NCBI GenBank assembly: GCA_046758445.1
Contig: JBHIAE010000073.1
Coordinates: 1-12,494, forward strand
Length of the DNA: 12,494 nucleotides
DNA from: Candidatus Thorarchaeota archaeon
GTDB lineage: Archaea; Asgardarchaeota; Thorarchaeia; Thorarchaeales; Thorarchaeaceae
Direction: 5' to 3'
The position numbers were made by a program, and so were the translations under genes. The notes below the pieces were generated by a model, which saw nothing but the letters and a program-made list of their open reading frames with translations, did no database searches and was not told the origin of the DNA. The number at the start of each line of letters is the position of its first letter. Position 1 is the first letter of the stretch. Below are positions 1 through 11,864 of this stretch, piece after piece.

Positions 1-993
1 TGGAAGAAGTATGGTGTTCTCTCCAGGATTTCCAAAGATGAGCTGTCTGCGGGAGCCCGCGTAGAGGTTGATGAGAAGAAGCAAGATCCGCGTGACTTTG
101 CACTCTGGAAAGCCGAAAAGCCAGGAGAACCATCTTGGGAAAGTCCGTGGGGCAAGGGGAGACCTGGCTGGCATGCTGAGTGCTCAGTTATGGGGAAGCA
201 CTATCTCGGCATCCCGTTCGACATCCATGGTGGTGGGCAAGACCTGATATTCCCACATCACGAGAACGAGATAGCTCAGTCAGCGGCCGCATATGGCATT
301 GACACACCTGTCAAGTACTGGTTGCATAATGGTTTCCTTACCCTCGACGCTGAGAAGATGTCCAAGTCTGAAGGGAATATGTTCACTGCCCGAGAGGTGC
401 TTGACAAGTACGACTATCAGGCCGTTCGGCTGTACCTCGTGTCCGGGCAGTACCGTCAGCCATTAGACTACAATGATGATGCTCTCAAACAGGCTACTCA
501 ATCAGTTGAGAGAATCAAGAACGCGGCTGACAACGTTCGGGGAAGAATCTCAATTCTTGAGAAGACCGGTAGTAGAGAATCGGAAGCCGACAAGAAGCTG
601 TCAAAGGCAACCCAGAAAGTCAGAGCCGGTTTCGAGAAGGAGATGGACGACGATTTCAACACACCCGGAGCTCTTGCCGAGGTCTTCACATTTGTTAGAG
701 AAATGAACACTCTGACGAACGATGTGGGAGGAGCAGCCGTACTAAGAGAGGCTCTGGCCACTCTTGTGGAGTTGATGGGCATATTGGGAATAGATCTTGC
801 TGCGAAGGAGTTGGAAGATTCTGGTGTGGCTGCCGAAGCGCTGAAAGGTGTCGTGGAGTTTCTGCTGGAACTCCGTGAAGAGGCGAGGAAGGCCAAAGAC
901 TTCGCCACGTCGGACAGAATCCGGGATAGACTAGGTGAGATAGGAATCATCGTTACCGATACGAAGGATGGTCCAACCTGGAAGATAGGCTAG
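1..993 (+). CDS. cysS: Cysteinyl-tRNA synthetase (5'-truncated by window edge)
   Basis: Frame 1 is open from base 1: ...DFALWK...SPWGKGRPGWHAECSVM, then DIHGGGQDLIFPHHENEIAQS, KMSKS, MDDDFNTP and SDRIRDRL. These are hallmark CysRS motifs. The ATG at 190 is internal. Confidence 0.98.
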   Translation, partial: WKKYGVLSRISKDELSAGARVEVDEKKQDPRDFALWKAEKPGEPSWESPWGKGRPGWHAECSVMGKHYLGIPFDIHGGGQDLIFPHHENEIAQSAAAYGIDTPVKYWLHNGFLTLDAEKMSKSEGNMFTAREVLDKYDYQAVRLYLVSGQYRQPLDYNDDALKQATQSVERIKNAADNVRGRISILEKTGSRESEADKKLSKATQKVRAGFEKEMDDDFNTPGALAEVFTFVREMNTLTNDVGGAAVLREALATLVELMGILGIDLAAKELEDSGVAAEALKGVVEFLLELREEARKAKDFATSDRIRDRLGEIGIIVTDTKDGPTWKIG

Positions 994-1122
994 GCAGGAC
1001 CCACACTATTTTCAGAACCAGAACCTGCTCCTGAGGTCCTAGCCACAGGCTCGAGCCACTTGCTGAGGTACTAGGGCTTAATAACGCTACAACGAACTGA
1101 TGCCTAGGTAAGGTGCATAGCG

Positions 1123-1482
1123 GTGCGGCTCACGTGGGTCAGAAGGAAGTTGTCTAGTAGGTCCCTTGTGTTGAGGATCCTAGTCGGCTCTCTCTTCCTC
1201 TATTTGCTATGGATGTTTCCTTACACCCTTGCTATGATGGGTGACTGGGGCAGCGTGGTGATGTGGACCAGTGCGCCCGCTGGATCTCTATTTCCCTTTC
1301 CAACCATGCCAGGTCCATTGATGATGCTAGTTCCAGCGAATGAGGTTGATTCGTTCATCTATCTATACGTATTCAAGACCTGGTTATGGTTGATCTATGG
1401 TGCGTTTGCGGGCCCTTATGCCCTCTCGCCATATAGACCTAGTACCAAGCCTGAGAGTCAAGCTATTTGGGACGATTCTTGA
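1123..1482 (+). CDS. Small hypothetical membrane protein
   Basis: 119-aa ORF with a basic N-terminus and 2-3 hydrophobic segments. TATA-like CTTAATAA at 1077-1084. Its 3' end overlaps the convergent LarA gene by 20 nt. Confidence 0.65.
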   Translation: MRLTWVRRKLSSRSLVLRILVGSLFLYLLWMFPYTLAMMGDWGSVVMWTSAPAGSLFPFPTMPGPLMMLVPANEVDSFIYLYVFKTWLWLIYGAFAGPYALSPYRPSTKPESQAIWDDS

Positions 1483-2854
1483 CATCCACCAGCAGTCCTG
1501 CGTCAGGAAGCACATACACCCTCGGACTGGGAATGTCTGGGTTATCGCGGATGAACCTATCAACTAGCTCGCGCATAATCCTCTGAGCGTCACCGGGATT
1601 TTCAGGGTTGATCCCCTCCATCCTGTAAACATCCCAGAGCTCTTTCGGATCTAGTTGCGTTACGACCTTGATGTTGTGCTCAGCAACATCCAGGAATATC
1701 CTAAACAGGTCCGGAGGCTTTTGATTGCCGATCTTGAAGGTCTCTTCGGTGCCGTACGTTTGTATTGTGAACTTGAGAGCGTCCTTCACCATCATGTCTT
1801 TGGACGCCATCATAGCCTCTTCATATCCTTCGCTCCCAATACCTTCCTGACATGGAGCCAGCAAGACAATCCAGCCCTTCAAGTCGTGCCGCACAGCATT
1901 CCAGGCGGCATGGATGCCCTTTCCTGCCTGGTAGAGGTTCAGTCCTAACTCACCAACCGACACGAACACAATGTCTCCCGGTTCCTCCACCTCTACGACC
2001 CTCAGTTTCTTCAGTGGTCCAGCCGCTGCCTTGTGACATTCAATGAGGTCACCGGCTTGGAGATAGACAATCTCTCCGTGGTTCACGATTGTATCGACAC
2101 AGAACATAGGGAGCTTCTCTTTGACGTTTGATGCGATCTCAATCATGTCCTCGATGACCGGATTGCCCTCAACATTGCCAAGCCTGCACCCAGGTACAAA
2201 TCCTCGCTCTAAGTCAAACATTCGTGGATGATTCACACGGATCGTTTCTCGTCCTGCAACTCCCGGACAGAAAAGCTTCACAGTGCCTGCCTGTCCAGCG
2301 AAGTAGTGGTACTCAGAATCAGAAAGAGGGATGAGCAATGCTGCGTCCATCACCTGCTCGTCTATGAATATCGGTGTGCCCCTTGATGTTTTGCCAAGCT
2401 CTCGGTTTCCTGCATCACAATCATGAAGCAAGACGTGGTCCTTCCATTCTTGGTGTATCTGAGACCCAAGTATTCTCTTCTCTATTGCTTCAGCACTTGG
2501 CTTCTTGTGTGAACCACTGGCCACTATTATCTTGATGTCCTCTTTTCGAACGCCGATGTCCAGCAATCTCGTGGTAAGACGTGGTAACAAGACTCTCGTG
2601 TGTATGTTGGGACGAGTATTGTCGTCCACGATGAACATTATTGTCCGGCCATGTTCGTAGACTTCCTTCACGAGCTCGTTGAAGGAATTCGATCCGATTG
2701 GGTCTTCCAGCACCTGCTTGAGCTTAGCTTCGAAGTCATCAAAGTCAGGCTTGTACTCCTCAACCTGGAGGACAGTGACATCCTCCAATGTTGTCGGAAT
2801 GAACTCATCTACAAAAGAGGCACCATACTTGATAGGAGTCTTGTAGTAGGACAT
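1463..2854 (-). CDS. larA: Nickel-pincer-dependent lactate racemase family (LarA superfamily) alpha-hydroxyacid racemase/epimerase
   Basis: Motifs DDNTRP, ASGSH, HYFAGQAGTVKLFCPG, NH and NLYQAGKG match the LarA catalytic and cofactor-binding residues. Start placed at ATG 2854 because GGAGGAGG lies 5 nt upstream. Substrate cannot be determined from sequence. Confidence 0.88.
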   Translation of the reverse strand: MSYYKTPIKYGASFVDEFIPTTLEDVTVLQVEEYKPDFDDFEAKLKQVLEDPIGSNSFNELVKEVYEHGRTIMFIVDDNTRPNIHTRVLLPRLTTRLLDIGVRKEDIKIIVASGSHKKPSAEAIEKRILGSQIHQEWKDHVLLHDCDAGNRELGKTSRGTPIFIDEQVMDAALLIPLSDSEYHYFAGQAGTVKLFCPGVAGRETIRVNHPRMFDLERGFVPGCRLGNVEGNPVIEDMIEIASNVKEKLPMFCVDTIVNHGEIVYLQAGDLIECHKAAAGPLKKLRVVEVEEPGDIVFVSVGELGLNLYQAGKGIHAAWNAVRHDLKGWIVLLAPCQEGIGSEGYEEAMMASKDMMVKDALKFTIQTYGTEETFKIGNQKPPDLFRIFLDVAEHNIKVVTQLDPKELWDVYRMEGINPENPGDAQRIMRELVDRFIRDNPDIPSPRVYVLPDAGLLVDVKNRPK

Positions 2855-2936
2855 TTTATCCTCCTCCGTAGACACGTTTCCATCCGCATGTAACGATTAC
2901 GGTACGAAGCGCAAGTAGAACGTCGCAAAGCCGTTT

Positions 2937-2950
2937 AGAAAACTCTTATA
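2937..2950 (+). promoter_or_regulatory. BRE/TATA-like promoter of the feo operon
   Basis: Purine run AGAAAA followed by CTTATA (2945-2950), about 26 nt upstream of the operator palindrome. Confidence 0.55.
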
Positions 2951-2975
2951 TCTGCATGATGTGTCCTCATGGAAT

Positions 2976-2991
2976 GTTAGAGTCCTCTAAC
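2976..2991. promoter_or_regulatory. DtxR/MntR-family metal-responsive operator
   Basis: Perfect inverted repeat GTTAGAG-TC-CTCTAAC (core TTAG-N6-CTAA) at the expected transcription start of feoA. Confidence 0.7.
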
Positions 2992-3036
2992 TTTCAAACG
3001 ATTTAGTTGGATAGACAATTACAGAGAGCGTGTGTC

Positions 3037-3411
3037 ATGTCGGACGAAGTGACGCCCACACTGGATTCACAACAGCTGAAGAGGCTTACAGATGTAAGTC
3101 CAGGCACCAAATGTGTACTCGTTGGAATCGAAGGGCTACGTCCAAGCAGACACTCACCCCGGGAAGGTCGTCACAGAAAACGCAGAGGTCGTCACTCTTC
3201 TCCTGATGAAGACTGCCGCTTCCGTGATTCTCACAGACCGGAAGGCAGAGGGTTGATGAGAAGACTGATGGACCTCGGCATTACGAAAGGATGCGTCTTC
3301 ACAGTCGTTCAAGGGAGAGGCCACGGTCCCGTACTTGTTGAGGTGAGGGGAACAAGAATCGCACTTGGCCACGGAATGGCCAGCCGAATACTTGTCGAGG
3401 AGGTTTCGTAG
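3037..3411 (+). CDS. feoA: Ferrous iron transport protein A with Arg/His-rich insertion
   Basis: LTDVSPGTKCVLVGI...RRLMDLGITKG...GPVLVEVRGTRIALGHGMASRILV is the FeoA SH3-like signature. It lies directly upstream of feoB. ATG 3037 is preferred over TTG 3007. Confidence 0.93.
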   Translation: MSDEVTPTLDSQQLKRLTDVSPGTKCVLVGIEGLRPSRHSPREGRHRKRRGRHSSPDEDCRFRDSHRPEGRGLMRRLMDLGITKGCVFTVVQGRGHGPVLVEVRGTRIALGHGMASRILVEEVS

Positions 3412-3415
3412 TCAG

Positions 3416-4231
3416 GTGAAGATCAAGATTGCTCTAATTGGTAATCCCAACGTAGGCAAGTCTGTGGTCTTCAACAATCTCACAGGCTCCAGACAGCATA
3501 CAGGCAATTGGCCAGGCAAGACTGTAGAACGAAAGGAAGGATACTTTGTGCACGAGGGCTATGAGTTCGAAGTAGTTGATCTGCCTGGCGTCTACAGTCT
3601 CAGTACTCTGTCAGAGGATGAGGAAGTCGCCAGACAGTATCTGATTGACGATCGACCAGATGTTGTAGTCGACATTCTCAATGCGTCTCAACTTGAGAGG
3701 AACCTGTATCTCACACTTCTGCTCCTCGAGATGCAATTGAACCTCGTTGTGGTCTTGAACATGCATGATGTTGTGAAAGCGAGAGGTGACACCATAGATG
3801 TTGACGCCTTATCGAACAGAATCAGAACACCGGTCGTCGTTACCACTGCTACGAGGAAAGAGGGCATGGATGACCTGAAGGACGCCATTCTGAAGGGAAC
3901 TCCCGATCATGTCCTTAGGGACTCGAAGGAGGATGTTGACAAGGCTGACCATGTAGTTGGAGAACCGGACGGAGAAGACCTTCTACACTACCACCCGAGG
4001 CATCATCACCACGGTGAGTATGAAACCTTGGAACCGCCCGCCATCAAGTATAGCAAGAGAGTCGAGGACAAACTAGACCAGATTGTCGCAATAATGAGCG
4101 AGGAGAAAGTGCTCCTCGATAGATTCCCGCCTCGTTGGCTTGCGTTGAGAGTATTGGAACGAGATAACGAGATACTCCTGATGATACAGAACCCTATCAT
4201 TCGAAACAGAGTCTTGGAGGTCTCATTGTGA
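3416..4231 (+). CDS. feoB: FeoB N-terminal cytosolic GTPase/helical domain (split FeoB, part 1)
   Basis: G1 GNPNVGKS, G2 GNWPGKTVE, G3 DLPG, G4 NMHD, plus LERNLYLT. GTG 3416 follows an SD-like GAGGAGGT. No TM segments. Confidence 0.93.
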   Translation: MKIKIALIGNPNVGKSVVFNNLTGSRQHTGNWPGKTVERKEGYFVHEGYEFEVVDLPGVYSLSTLSEDEEVARQYLIDDRPDVVVDILNASQLERNLYLTLLLLEMQLNLVVVLNMHDVVKARGDTIDVDALSNRIRTPVVVTTATRKEGMDDLKDAILKGTPDHVLRDSKEDVDKADHVVGEPDGEDLLHYHPRHHHHGEYETLEPPAIKYSKRVEDKLDQIVAIMSEEKVLLDRFPPRWLALRVLERDNEILLMIQNPIIRNRVLEVSL

Positions 4232-5553
4232 ACACCCCCCGCCAGCTGAGCGAGGAAGAGGTGGAAGCGCCGATTCCAGACGACATTGATGCGCAAATCC
4301 TCTTGGCAGATGAGAGGTACAAGATCATTGGGGACATCCTCTGTGAAGTCTACGAGCCTGGACAAGAGAAATGGATTCTCAGCGACCTTCTTGACAGTGT
4401 CTTTCTTCACCGCTACCTTGGACTGCCCATCTTCCTCGTCATTGTCTGGGCAATGTTTCACTTCACCTTTGCAGCTTCAGAGGTCTTCATGGCCATGATC
4501 GAAGAGGCATTCATATGGCTCGGATCTCTGACCTCCCAGATTCCCGTTCCCTGGTTGGCGTCCCTCCTCACTGACGGCGTGATTGGTGGTTTAGGATTCA
4601 TCCTTGTCTTCGTACCTCCAATCATGTTCATGTATCTGACAATCTCTATTCTTGAGGATAGTGGATACTTAGCGAGAGCTGCGTATGTCATGGATCGTAT
4701 CATGATGAGAATTGGACTTCATGGGAGATCTTTCATTCCGCTGTTGTTGGGCTTCGGATGTAGTGTGCCCGCGATAATGGCTGCGAGAACAGTCGATGGG
4801 CAGGAGAATCGGCTGACAACAATCATGGTGACACCCCTCATGTCCTGTGCAGCAAGGCTCCCGGTCTACGTCGTAATTGCCGGAGTCTTCTTTCCGGCGT
4901 TTGCAGGAACCATGGTCTTCGTGATGTATATTCTGGGCATAGTGATGGCTGTGACTATGGCCCTCCTATTCAAGAAGACCCTGTTCAGAGAAGAAGCAAC
5001 ACCACTCATCATGGAGCTTCCCACATATCAGACTCCAACAATTCATGGCTCCCTCAGACATGCTTGGGATCGAGGCTACTTGTTCCTCAGAAAGGCTGGC
5101 ACCTATCTTCTGGCCGGTGCCATCGTTCTGTGGTTCTTGTCGTCGATGGGACCGGGAGGTTTCGGTGTCCCTGTTGACGACTCATTCATCGCAGCCATTG
5201 GGAATCTTGGTGCTCCTCTCTTTTCACCACAAGGCTTCCCCTGGCAGATTGTCGCTGCGTTGATCTTTGGCCTTCTTGCAAAGGAGGTAGTTGTTGAGTC
5301 ACTCGGAATCATCTTCTCAGCACAGGGCGAGGCCGCTGTCGCCACAGCTCTTGCAGCTAGTCTGACTCCATTGTCTGCCTTTGCTCTGATGGTATTCGTC
5401 TTGCTCTATACTCCGTGTATTGCCACTGTGGGTACTATTAGAACTGAAACCGGATCTTGGAAATGGGCGGGTGTGTCAGTTGCGTATCAGCTTGTCCTCG
5501 CGTATCTTGTTTCACTGCTCGTGGTGCTTGCGGGAGGTCTGTTCATTGGCTAA
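4228..5553 (+). CDS. feoB: FeoB membrane domain (split FeoB, part 2)
   Basis: LADERY linker, LEDSGYLARAA, GFGCSVPA, MSCAARLP, MELP and LYTPCIAT gate motifs. The GTG start overlaps the upstream TGA (GTGA) and is preceded by GGAGGT. Confidence 0.95.
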   Translation: MNTPRQLSEEEVEAPIPDDIDAQILLADERYKIIGDILCEVYEPGQEKWILSDLLDSVFLHRYLGLPIFLVIVWAMFHFTFAASEVFMAMIEEAFIWLGSLTSQIPVPWLASLLTDGVIGGLGFILVFVPPIMFMYLTISILEDSGYLARAAYVMDRIMMRIGLHGRSFIPLLLGFGCSVPAIMAARTVDGQENRLTTIMVTPLMSCAARLPVYVVIAGVFFPAFAGTMVFVMYILGIVMAVTMALLFKKTLFREEATPLIMELPTYQTPTIHGSLRHAWDRGYLFLRKAGTYLLAGAIVLWFLSSMGPGGFGVPVDDSFIAAIGNLGAPLFSPQGFPWQIVAALIFGLLAKEVVVESLGIIFSAQGEAAVATALAASLTPLSAFALMVFVLLYTPCIATVGTIRTETGSWKWAGVSVAYQLVLAYLVSLLVVLAGGLFIG

Positions 5554-6346: not shown

Positions 6347-7135
6347 TTGCCCAAGTCAAATCAGGTAGGAAATGAGGAGTCTGCAACCTCTAATGGAGTC
6401 AAGTCCGTCGCTCTCAAGTTCGTAGATTGTATCAATGCGGGGGACTCCATAGGACTCATGGCACTCCAAACAGAGGATTTCACATTCATCGACTACGATG
6501 GAGATGCTCATCATGGTCGCGATAGTTGGCACAGCTACTTTCGGGATTACCCTGACTATAAGATTCACGTCAGACACCTAATCACCAGTGGAAATGGAGT
6601 GGCCATCATCGGTGACACTACGGGCTGTCATGTCGGGCCTGATGTTGAGAAGAAGTGGACAATACTGTGGACTGCTGAGGCACGCGATGAATCAGTGGCC
6701 AAATGGAGAATCTACTCCGATGTACACGAGGTTAGAGAGAACCTAAGGCTGGAAAAGGCTCCCAAAGAGTATAGAGAGAAAATCGCTGCTGTCAAGTCCA
6801 CTGCATCCGACTTCATAGATTGTATCAATAGAGGTGACTCTGAGGGTCTCATGGCACTCCAGACTGAGGACTTTACACTAATGGACTATGACGGTGGAGT
6901 GTTCCGAGGCCGAGATGGTTGGTACGACTACTTTAGCGAGTGCCCCAACTACATGATCCATGTTAGGCACGTGATCACGAGCGGCAACGGTGTTGCATTG
7001 TTCGGAAGGACTACCGGTTCCCACGTGAGCAGAGAAGCCGAAAACAGAGAAACAATCCTATGGACCGCTGAGATTCGTGACAGACTAGTCGCTGAGTGGC
7101 GACTCTATTCAGATATTCATGAAATAGAAAAGTAG
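6347..7135 (+). CDS. Tandem SnoaL/NTF2-like domain protein
   Basis: Two homologous ~111-aa units with the NTF2/SnoaL pattern (F.DCIN.GD..GLMALQTEDFT...YF...P.Y.IHVRH.ITSGNGVA...WR.YSD). Confidence 0.85.
   Translation: MPKSNQVGNEESATSNGVKSVALKFVDCINAGDSIGLMALQTEDFTFIDYDGDAHHGRDSWHSYFRDYPDYKIHVRHLITSGNGVAIIGDTTGCHVGPDVEKKWTILWTAEARDESVAKWRIYSDVHEVRENLRLEKAPKEYREKIAAVKSTASDFIDCINRGDSEGLMALQTEDFTLMDYDGGVFRGRDGWYDYFSECPNYMIHVRHVITSGNGVALFGRTTGSHVSREAENRETILWTAEIRDRLVAEWRLYSDIHEIEK
6398..7123 (+). repeat. Intragenic domain duplication (6398-6730 and 6791-7123, offset 393 nt)
   Basis: Nucleotide-level similarity is visible, for example tagattgtatcaat and ctcatggcactcca occur in both units. The units are colinear without indels. 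Confidence 0.9.
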
Positions 7136-9466: not shown

Positions 9467-9606
9467 AGCTCATAATGGCAATATTACCTTCTATCGATTA
9501 CTGGTTCGGAGGGGATGCGACCGTCGTTTCCAGAGATGCTTACTCAGATGACAGCATTGAGATTGAGTGCGAAGAATGATGAGGAATATTGACACGTGGC
9601 ATGGGC

Positions 9607-9687
9607 GGCGAGCACGCAGGAAGTCGCGGTAGGAGGGAAATCTCGTAACTGAGGGCATGTGACGGAAAACATATCCACATACTCGCC
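9607..9687 (-). ncRNA. Candidate structured ncRNA, copy 1 (unknown family)
   Basis: The minus strand reads GGCGAGUAUGUGG...CUGCGUGCUCGCC, giving a ~13-bp terminal stem that needs G-U pairs (C-A mismatches on +). Homologous to 11631-11713. Confidence 0.6.
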
Positions 9688-9915
9688 AGGATGTACTTTC
9701 ATGCTCTGACTCACGTAGCTATTGGCTGGGAACTTAAGCAGCCGTATAAATGAATGCACGGTCTGGGTCGCCCTCAAGATTGATAAGGAGCCTAGTTCGA
9801 ATCTCATCCGAGGGTTGTGTTTGCCAATGGCTCCTTCACTTCGGCCTTTTCTTGCCCCACTTCTTGACAGAGGGTCTTCTGGATTGCATATGACCCGGAT
9901 TGCTTACAGCGTGAT

Positions 9916-11241
9916 TTGAGGAAGATTCTGATGTCATCTGGAAGGATCCTTGTTTCAGGATTGATGTTGATTCTGGTGGTAGCTCTGGTCGGTCCCGCCA
10001 AATCCATTAGTGCTGTCGTAAGCTCATACGACTACGTTGTTGGGGAGTTGGTGGAGCCTTTGCACAATGGCACATCCATAACTGACCAGGATGTCCAGTG
10101 CAAAGACATGGCTATTGCAGAAGACGGCTCTGCTTACATCCTAGGTACGACTGATCCCTATGTTGGTGGAGGATATGCTCCGGATGTCGTTCTTACTAAG
10201 TGGAACTCTAATGCGGAATTGGTCTGGACAAAAGTATGGGACAATGGCTTTGGTGCAGAGGGTTTCGCCTTGGCAACAAGTGGCGACTTTGTTTATGTAG
10301 CTGGGAGATACTTCGATGAATCCAGCGCGAGGATGTTACTCATGAAGTGGGGTGCGGACGGTAGCCTAGTTTGGACCCATTATGGGTTTGACGACGAGAA
10401 GGGCTACTTGTTGAGTGATGTGGCAGTCGCGCCTGACGGTTCTGTCTTTGTTGTGGGGGCTGGCGACTTCCATGACCCAGGTCTCGATACCGCTTACCTG
10501 CTTAGGTACAGTTCTTCAGGCAGTATGCTGTGGTATAGGGAGCTTGGAGATGTTTCACTTCGAATGGGCCTTGTTACAGTTACTGGCACAAGTGAGGTCT
10601 ACACTTACTTCCAGAGAGAGGTCGTCAAATGGACACCATCAGGGGATAGAGTTCATAACTTCACCACTACTTGCATCTTTGTTGACGGAAGCCCGACGGG
10701 AGCACTGTATACGGCTACGACAGGGTCCAACGCAGATCCATTCATTCTTGCACGTTGGAACTCAACGAGCGCGCAAGACTGGAGCAGGACTATGCACGTT
10801 GATTGGCACAACAGCATGTATCCACTTCACATGGTTGGAGCCCTTGATGCAGTCCCTGACGATGCCACGTATATTCTATTCTCACTTATCGAGGTTTGGC
10901 CCGACCTGGTTCTGGCCAGGTATGACCCCAGTGGTCTCCAGGCATGGAACAGGTCCATCTCATATCCATTTCCGCAATTGGGCATTAAGCAGATGGAAGT
11001 GTCATCGACAGGTGTAGTCTACGTCGCTGGGACCAACTACAACCAGGAGGAGGAAGACTCAGTCATGGGACTTGGGCTCTCAATCTACAAAGTAGAAGAT
11101 CTTACACCAATCCCAATCACAATCCCACCTCCCGGGGACCGTCAGATTCCAGTTCTTGCCATTGGCATTGCCGGTATTGGAGTAGTAGCCGTGGTGGGGG
11201 CGTACATAGTCATAGGAAAGAGAAGACACAGCACTTCCTAA
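9916..11241 (+). CDS. Secreted beta-propeller surface protein with C-terminal TM anchor
   Basis: Signal peptide, repeated blades (DMAIAEDGSAYILG / DVAVAPDGSVFVVG / L.KW...G.LVW), a Pro/Thr linker, a C-terminal TM helix and a KRRH tail. Confidence 0.85.
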   Translation: MRKILMSSGRILVSGLMLILVVALVGPAKSISAVVSSYDYVVGELVEPLHNGTSITDQDVQCKDMAIAEDGSAYILGTTDPYVGGGYAPDVVLTKWNSNAELVWTKVWDNGFGAEGFALATSGDFVYVAGRYFDESSARMLLMKWGADGSLVWTHYGFDDEKGYLLSDVAVAPDGSVFVVGAGDFHDPGLDTAYLLRYSSSGSMLWYRELGDVSLRMGLVTVTGTSEVYTYFQREVVKWTPSGDRVHNFTTTCIFVDGSPTGALYTATTGSNADPFILARWNSTSAQDWSRTMHVDWHNSMYPLHMVGALDAVPDDATYILFSLIEVWPDLVLARYDPSGLQAWNRSISYPFPQLGIKQMEVSSTGVVYVAGTNYNQEEEDSVMGLGLSIYKVEDLTPIPITIPPPGDRQIPVLAIGIAGIGVVAVVGAYIVIGKRRHSTS

Positions 11242-11386
11242 GTTTAGGATATTCCGAGAAGGAAAGCCGCCACATAGAAGAGGAAAGATCTGTGTCCGCA
11301 CGTTTCGTATCTAGCGATAGGTAGATACACTAGAATGATTCGAGGAACCGGTGTGGGCTTGAAGGTACGTGAGGATGGGATTTGAT

Positions 11387-11572
11387 ATGAGCGATGTTGA
11401 GGAGCCAAAAAAGAGTAACAGGACTGTCTACAATGCCTCCGTCTGTCTTATGGCGTTCAGCGCGTTCCTGACATGGTGAGGCTCGCGCACAGACTACATA
11501 TTGATGCTCGTGTGACTTGCCTTGTTCATATCGTTCTTCGCTCTGACGATGATGAACAGGCCCAAGAAATGA
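11387..11572 (+). pseudogene. Two-TM micro-protein ORF interrupted by two in-frame TGA codons (pseudogene or recoded)
   Basis: MSDVEEPKKSNRTVYNASVCLMAFSAFLTW*GSRTDYILMLV*LALFISFFALTMMNRPKK*, with TGA at 11477, 11513 and 11570. TATA-like CTTGAA at 11358-11363. Confidence 0.55.
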
Positions 11573-11630
11573 TGGTCGACAGAGAATGTGTGCTGTGGTC
11601 TTCGTATACCTTGGACTATCGACCATAGGT

Positions 11631-11713
11631 GGCGAGCACACGGGAAATCGTGGTAGGAGGGGGGAGTTTCGTAATTGAGGGCATGTAACGAAAAACTAGC
11701 CCGCATGCTCGCC
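11631..11713 (-). ncRNA. Candidate structured ncRNA, copy 2 (unknown family)
   Basis: The minus strand forms a 14-bp stem GGCGAGCAUGCGGG/CCCGUGUGCUCGCC (2 G-U), an inner helix UUUCGU/ACGAAA, and loops AUGCCCUCA and CCCCCCUCCUACC. Confidence 0.65.
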
Positions 11714-11864
11714 ATAGATGGCACGCGTACCCTCACTCAAGTATCTATCTGTCAGTACTTCCATTCGTCTGTCTTCTCTTCCTCTTCTTCTGCTAAGGAA
11801 GGTCTTCATGACGCTTAATTCTCAATCTCCACAAAGTGTCATGATTAGGATGACGCATTAGTAC

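Follow-up and report, generated by a model that had tools for sequence, protein, structure and literature searches.

Two copies of a hairpin-forming element of 81-83 nt, both read on the minus strand, lie at positions 9607-9687 (copy A) and 11631-11713 (copy B) of contig JBHIAE010000073.1, from a Candidatus Thorarchaeota archaeon (assembly GCA_046758445.1); the whole stretch analysed, 12,494 nt, is called the window below. The two copies very probably belong to a real small RNA (sRNA) gene family, strand-specific, strongly covarying, restricted to one clade and new to the catalogues, of which the window would hold one canonical (B) and one diverged (A) member. The best overall explanation, to which a probability of about 0.4 may be given on sequence evidence, is that these are undescribed sRNA genes, the C-rich loops of which would mask GGAGG-type ribosome-binding regions in trans. 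The element is not limited to two copies or to the window.

An earlier reading of this DNA (the original prediction) had described two diverged copies of a structured element at these positions. The segments 9600-9695 and 11624-11720 can indeed be aligned over about 92 nt, with 78-84% identity and a single 2-nt indel. The minus-strand terminal stem of 13-14 bp, also predicted, is formed by both, with 13 bp in copy A and 14 bp in copy B, and the differences between the two stems preserve pairing by means of G-U pairs on that strand. Copy B, read from 11713 to 11631 (83 nt), folds at -29.1 kcal/mol, with a minimum free energy (MFE) z-score of -4.7 against dinucleotide shuffles; for copy A, read from 9687 to 9607 (81 nt), the corresponding z-score is -1.75. 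The words ACAUGCCCUCA and CCCUCCUACC, which had been reported as invariant unpaired segments, are the same in both copies as well as in 110 or more relatives. Matches to the element, obtained by nhmmer and by covariance models, have E-values between 1e-14 and 1e-27, well past chance.

The secondary structure was derived from 31 non-redundant copies of the type to which both window copies belong (type 1). RNAalifold predicts for them a closing stem of 14 bp (P1) and an inner helix (P2), UUUCGU/ACGAAA. In the type-1 alignment 11 of the 14 P1 pairs are changed on both sides, and 97.6% of the P1 cells are paired. This value falls to 33-56% on sliding the 3' partners, and on none of five measures was the observed value attained in 500 shuffles. 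P1 contains 53 G-U or U-G cells versus 2 A-C cells, so that the opposite strand would have 53 mismatches. This asymmetry, which agrees with the earlier claim that the substitutions keep pairing through G-U on the minus strand, fixes the minus strand of the window as the putative functional one. Of 112 copies, 83 fold better in this orientation.

When 52 copies of all three types of the family are considered, all 14 P1 pairs and 4 of the 6 P2 pairs are changed on both sides, and 90.9% of the cells are paired (34-49% when slid); this alignment was fitted to the model, and hence leans towards the structure. A plain MAFFT alignment of mixed types gave no structure with RNAalifold, as stems of unequal length are misaligned. 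P2, which the original prediction had held to be an imperfect helix, is invariant within type 1 and shows a clean switch between types, from C-G in type 1 to U-A in types 2 and 3, and is to be taken as real. The small alternative hairpin CACG/CGUG, also proposed there, is not conserved in the alignment of the relatives. P1 measures 14 bp in type 1 and is longer in types 2 and 3, where its ends, unreliable when taken from folding because internal loops break the stem, were taken from the alignment. At one syntenic locus, P1 differs between orthologous copies by compensated changes, and may therefore be regarded as a purely structural clamp.

The interior enclosed by P1 is G-free and almost invariant. 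It includes a U-tract, a first loop (L1) with UGCCCUCA, and a second loop (L2) with ACUCCCCCCUCCUACC; UGCCCUCA and ACUCCCCCCUCCUA are the nearly unchanging loop words of the family. Both loops lie outside P1 and P2, that is, an unpaired C-rich motif is displayed in loops, as in C-rich-loop sRNAs of the UCCC type. P1 is directly followed by ACC in 34 of 47 type-1 copies: of the word RCCYAUG, described in the original prediction after both copies, the ACC(U) part is thus kept in the family and the AUG is not. In two relatives the type-3 copy carries an extra hairpin (CCCGC-loop-GCGGG) between L1 and L2 (L043:71-195; L139, corresponding to G037:C64:18682-18786), as may be expected where an RNA junction tolerates insertions.

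Searches by BLAST, nhmmer and covariance model reveal eight complete copies in the host genome (3.25 Mb in 113 contigs, 92.7% complete), and a ninth that is truncated at a contig end. The closing-stem sequences of the family differ widely, and each forms pairs around one common interior; the variants found in the host are GGCGAGCAUGUGGG..., CCUGGUGGCGUGGGC..., GUGGUCA...GUCAGUAGGGC and GGUGGUCAGGGUGCCAGCAGGGC. The pattern made of the two loop words is found in at least 116 contigs of a collection of species-representative genomes, nearly all of them under the title Candidatus Thorarchaeota; several carry the phylum name Promethearchaeota, and a single one the label Hermodarchaeota. The copy in the latter (L033, JBHLLF010000039.1) is nearly the same as a Thorarchaeota copy (L026), also in its flanks, which suggests a mis-binned or mislabelled contig rather than the presence of the family in another class.

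A covariance model built from all types (R2) finds the family in all 26 other genomes of the host's taxonomic family and in the single genome of a sister family of the same order, while the type-1 model (R1) finds it in 25 of the 26 and in the sister-family genome. Outside the order, R2 finds it in none of 123 genomes from 25 other families of the phylum, and R1 likewise in 0 of 123; the genomes searched are samples of their groups, and the result is to be read as "not found in those searched". The homologue searches with nhmmer and covariance model thus return further copies in the host and in 27 of 27 other genomes of the order. These relatives contain 1 to 8 copies each, commonly 2-4, and lineage-specific expansions have led to 9 copies in the host and 8 in one relative (G108). 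Tandem copies, about 330 nt apart, were observed in some relatives (L121:4227-4649; G027:C26:68230-68649; G098:C166:1027-1537). The parts of the two window copies are listed in Table 1.

Table 1. Features of the two copies in the window. Positions are those of the window; R1 is the type-1 covariance model; SD, Shine-Dalgarno.
Feature	Position	Strand	Evidence
Copy B, canonical type-1 gene body, 83 nt	11631..11713	-	R1, 114 bits, E 2e-24
Copy B, P1 5' strand GGCGAGCAUGCGGG, pairs with 11631-11644	11700..11713	-	
Copy B, P1 3' strand CCCGUGUGCUCGCC	11631..11644	-	
Copy B, P2 5' strand UUUCGU; partner ACGAAA at 11667-11672	11688..11693	-	RNAalifold consensus
Copy B, L1 UACAUGCCCUCAAUU; its UGCCCUCA is retained even in the sister family	11673..11687	-	
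Copy B, L2 CUCCCCCCUCCUACCACGAUUU, single-stranded, C-rich; includes CCUCCU matching the 16S anti-SD	11645..11666	-	
Copy B, 3' tail ACCU, immediately past P1	11627..11630	-	
Copy B, upstream leader/promoter region, common to the copy on host contig C82	11714..11753	-	Weak
Copy A, diverged type-1 copy, 81 nt	9607..9687	-	Covariance model, 73.6 bits; alignment
Copy A, parts	P1 9674-9687 with 9607-9620; L1 9647-9661; L2 9621-9640	-	
Copy A, candidate promoter only: ATTTATAC, TATA-like, 57 nt ahead of P1	9744..9751	-	Sequence reading

Most copies are intergenic: 117 of 125 overlap no open reading frame (ORF) of 100 or more amino acids. Within type 1, 37 copies lie downstream of a radical-SAM protein gene and 21 upstream of a PhzF-like one; 20 type-3 copies are placed between an OsmC gene and one for a VWA protein, and other copies adjoin a PAS histidine kinase, a methyltransferase or an MFS transporter. 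The neighbours have no function in common and none that concerns RNA biology, and all four combinations of orientation relative to the neighbours occur. Since these neighbour sets are conserved but unrelated, with orientations in all four combinations, the context bears the signature of vertically inherited independent genes, at about three ancient paralogous loci plus lineage-specific extras, and not that of a mobile repeat or of the leader of one regulon.

A TATA-like box, TTWWTWRG, is found upstream of the copies in 68 cases in the sense and 14 in the antisense orientation, tightly clustered; examples are cTTAATAGG, cTTATTAGGAA and aaacTTTAATAAG. Counted back from the first base of P1, its distance is about 29 nt in types 2 and 3 and about 75 or 54 nt in type 1, where a leader of roughly 25-50 nt is thus implied. 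In the sister-family copy, TTTATATG is situated some 30 nt ahead of P1. The aaacTTTAATAAG box was observed to be highly conserved, about 75 nt before P1, in type-1 genes (L014-L129, for example L081, L098 and L026). Each copy may be considered a candidate independent gene with a candidate promoter, represented by boxes at fixed distance in the relatives and by weak TATA-like words only at the window copies. Covariation, strand-specific G-U pairing, clade-wide conservation, synteny and promoter boxes on the same strand together favour the proposal, contained in the original prediction, of a new multicopy family of archaeal structured RNAs.

The same data bear on the possibility that the element acts in cis on the neighbouring mRNAs, either as a 5' leader or riboswitch, or as a stabiliser or terminator hairpin in the 3' untranslated region. 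Of 109 downstream genes, 70 share the strand of the element, often at a distance of 50-80 nt, as for PhzF, and copy B lies about 150 nt past the stop of a same-strand VIT1-like gene. The functional diversity of the neighbours and the four orientations do not fit such a role, nor does a TATA-like box of its own, at fixed distance directly upstream; moreover, copy A runs antisense to the genes on either side. A cis element is therefore improbable.

Even less probable is a miniature mobile repeat, similar to a miniature inverted-repeat transposable element (MITE), which the original prediction had kept as its alternative, or a single-stranded DNA hairpin of the kind of repetitive extragenic palindromic (REP) or attC sequences. 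Terminal inverted repeats, the multicopy state, the expansions in the host and in G108, and the tandem or direct copies flanking a gene (in the window, L121 and G027) are features that a mobile repeat would share, and G-T wobbles are compatible with a single-stranded DNA hairpin. However, the arms vary around an invariant interior, which is the reverse of what is found in a MITE; no target-site duplications are present in the flanks; copy number is low, and different genera have the loci at orthologous, syntenic positions. A search of 2.9 million viral contigs yielded no copy. A MITE or an insertion sequence end was consequently rejected. The GTTRRRY core of attC sites is not present, and promoter and synteny favour RNA over a DNA hairpin.

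A protein-coding remnant, or a small ORF, is hardly credible. ORFs of 87 and 80 amino acids overlap the two copies on the minus strand; their products, however, are unrelated (BLASTP E 4.8), the copies differ by the 2-nt indel, and core indels have lengths that are not divisible by three. In the family as a whole the C-run varies from 4 to 8 and the U-run from 4 to 5, the L1-L2 spacing ranges from 29 to 47 nt, and the cores of types 2 and 3 contain UAA.

The element could not be assigned to a known RNA class, in line with what had been stated from the first inspection. A cmscan search of the whole window, on both strands, against Rfam 15 gave no match at E <= 1, and ARAGORN found no tRNA or tmRNA gene in the window. 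Box C/D sRNAs were rejected, as neither an RUGAUGA C box nor a CUGA D box is found in the conserved columns; CUGA appears only on the plus strand of copy A. Box H/ACA sRNAs were rejected as well, the tail being ACC and not ACA, the loops being devoid of GA pairs, and the pairing with rRNA being no better than that of shuffles. Full-text literature searches returned no description of the Thorarchaeota C-rich-loop RNA. Among archaeal sRNAs, sRNA154 and sRNA162 of Methanosarcina mazei are also intergenic, and have a promoter of their own and conserved loops for which pairing with mRNA leaders has been proposed; reportedly they are single-copy and confined to the genus level. They share no homology with the Thorarchaeota family, which is distributed across an order, has about three ancient paralogues, and features a clamp helix of free sequence.

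According to the preferred explanation, each gene would be transcribed on its own, to yield an RNA of about 90-150 nt, in which P1 would act as a clamp that keeps the C-rich loops open. The loops would pair in trans with purine-rich, GGAGG-type ribosome-binding regions of mRNAs, and pairing would block or tune translation initiation, in the manner of the UCCC-loop sRNAs of Firmicutes. In host ORFs, GGAGG/GAGG/GGTG boxes peak roughly 10 to 16 nt upstream of the ATG, which indicates that the host uses SD pairing. The 3' end of the host 16S rRNA is AUCACCUCCU, L2 has an identical CCUCCU, and the 16S terminal sequence CACCUCCU is compatible with an anti-SD reading of the loops. Given SD usage in the host and CCUCCU in L2, an RNA with open C-rich loops could mask ribosome-binding sites.

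The closest model of action is offered by RsaE/RoxS and the other UCCC-motif sRNAs of Firmicutes (RF01820; Geissmann et al. 2009, PMC2790875), which are about 100 nt long, are independently transcribed, and carry conserved, unpaired C-rich loop motifs; those of RsaE bind SD regions and block the formation of the initiation complex, which is an established mechanism (PMC2790875). They differ in being bacterial and in having no sequence or covariance-model similarity to the Thorarchaeota RNA. RsaE is made of two short hairpins, the Thorarchaeota RNA of one clamp of 14-28 bp, and the C-rich segments of the latter are much longer (CUCCCCCCUCCUACC). Taken by itself, the mechanism of trans-acting anti-SD-like loops that block or tune initiation, argued by analogy, is a tentative and somewhat doubtful proposal.

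In type 1 a G-rich 5' leader has to be considered as well. Type-1 leaders contain G-rich boxes (GUAGG, GGAGG or GGUGG, then GGGCA) complementary to L2 and L1, and the leader of copy B holds UGAGGG, complementary to L1. The energy of the leader-loop duplex is better than that obtained with shuffled leaders (mean z -2.2; below -1 in 19 of 21 cases). Since the type-1 loci share descent, the complementarity is no more than suggestive. The leader hairpin may be a domain that folds back onto the loops and masks them, or else the leader may be trimmed off.

Several observations weigh against the preferred explanation. In the host genome, 9-11-mers complementary to the loops occur at chance level (58 and 66 hits for 10-mers, about as expected), none of them at start sites, and generic SD pairing is indistinguishable from an effect of composition. 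The best duplexes of L1 and L2 with host 16S and 23S rRNA, between -14 and -23 kcal/mol, are no better than those of shuffled loops, so that the rRNA pairing suggested in the original prediction found no backing. CAUG, within L1, is not retained in the sister-family copy, which on sequence grounds weakens an "anti-start-codon" reading. As to the RNA nature of the element, G-T wobbles also stabilise single-stranded DNA hairpins, and the G-U asymmetry alone is no proof of RNA; moreover, the loci share descent, and the shuffle statistics overstate their independence. Neither window copy is preceded by the canonical TATA word of the family: the word in front of copy A is an inexact match to the motif, and before copy B only ATAGATA is found as a TATA-like word, the TTWWTWRG box not being there. 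Finally, copy A is the most diverged copy of the host genome (73.6 bits versus 114 for copy B) and, with L2 shortened to UUUCCCUCCUACC and a weaker fold, it may be decaying.

Within the same sRNA family, the loops might serve instead as a protein-binding platform, in a ribonucleoprotein (RNP) after the manner of Y or vault RNAs, or as a sponge for a protein of the poly(C)/KH or the Sm-like type. This possibility is also doubtful; a protein-scaffold role is nearly as likely as the mRNA-masking one. It would fit the invariance of the loops throughout the order, where an extended RNA target was not found, and the presence of CCCUC twice, in L1 and L2, as would suit a dimeric binder; the U-tract GUUUUUCG between P1 and P2 points the same way, as does an architecture in which a long terminal stem surrounds a large internal loop rich in pyrimidines, with some three ancient paralogues in each genome. 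On the other hand, the adjoining genes are unrelated to RNA biology, and no partner protein was found. The likeness to Y RNAs and bacterial Yrl RNAs (RF00019) lies in a length of about 85-110 nt, in 5' and 3' ends forming a long stem around a large pyrimidine-rich internal loop, and in several paralogues per genome. The Thorarchaeota RNA differs in that it has neither a conserved bulged-C Ro site nor a tRNA-like module, and matches no Y RNA or vault model of Rfam; the TROVE/Ro60 domain (PF05731) was not found in the host, whose genome is 92.7% complete. Identity with a Y RNA was accordingly rejected.

The helix closed by G-C pairs and followed by ACC resembles the acceptor end of tRNA. By analogy, this end and the variable leaders might point to maturation by RNase P, which is speculation. 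An unlikely extension of this idea is a clade-wide housekeeping RNA that would mimic two ribosomal ligands, with an acceptor-stem-like helix and ACC tail, matured by RNase P and RNase Z like a tRNA minihelix, together with a 16S-like anti-SD loop; its role would be that of a global decoy or chaperone of initiation, or of the RNA core of a eukaryote-like particle of the Y/vault type.

With regard to the host rRNAs themselves, a hairpin-like insertion of about 30 nt, AGAAGUAGAGAGUCACUCUCGCUUCCAUCA, was observed in the 16S rRNA (L131:3100-3150, contig C2), between GGAUGGA and the terminal AUCACCUCCU. The 16S match extends over 1588 nt, versus a model of 1478 positions, and the 23S match over 3331, versus 2987, which indicates that insertions or expansions are present in these rRNAs.

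In the window, copies A and B, in direct orientation, flank a single ORF of 441 amino acids (9916-11241, plus strand), the product of which has no Pfam match; by eye, a hydrophobic stretch is seen at its N-terminus and a hydrophobic anchor at its C-terminus, together with a segment rich in proline. The remaining part has ordinary genes at 1-5553, namely the 3' part of a cysteinyl-tRNA synthetase gene (1-993), a LarA-like lactate racemase gene on the minus strand (1463-2875), and an iron transport cluster (3007-5553) composed of FeoA and a split FeoB, whose N-terminal GTPase and membrane part are two separate ORFs. A direct repeat of 104 nt, 74% identical between its two occurrences (6398-6501 and 6791-6894), is contained within an ORF (6347-7135) whose product has two SnoaL-like domains, and may thus be explained as an internal domain duplication.

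Asgard archaea are the closest archaeal relatives of eukaryotes, and their non-coding RNAs are almost unknown. The family described here shows textbook covariation, is found in all the searched genomes of one order, with about three ancient paralogues, and is absent from the catalogues. If its loops mask ribosome-binding sites, it would be an archaeal counterpart of the mechanism used by the C-rich sRNAs of Firmicutes; if they bind protein instead, a new RNP may come to light. In either case, the covariance model improves the annotation of metagenome-assembled genomes of Thorarchaeota, and the family is a concrete target, cheap to address, in the first transcriptomes of Thorarchaeota and in binding work in vitro with 30S subunits, mRNA leaders or proteins.

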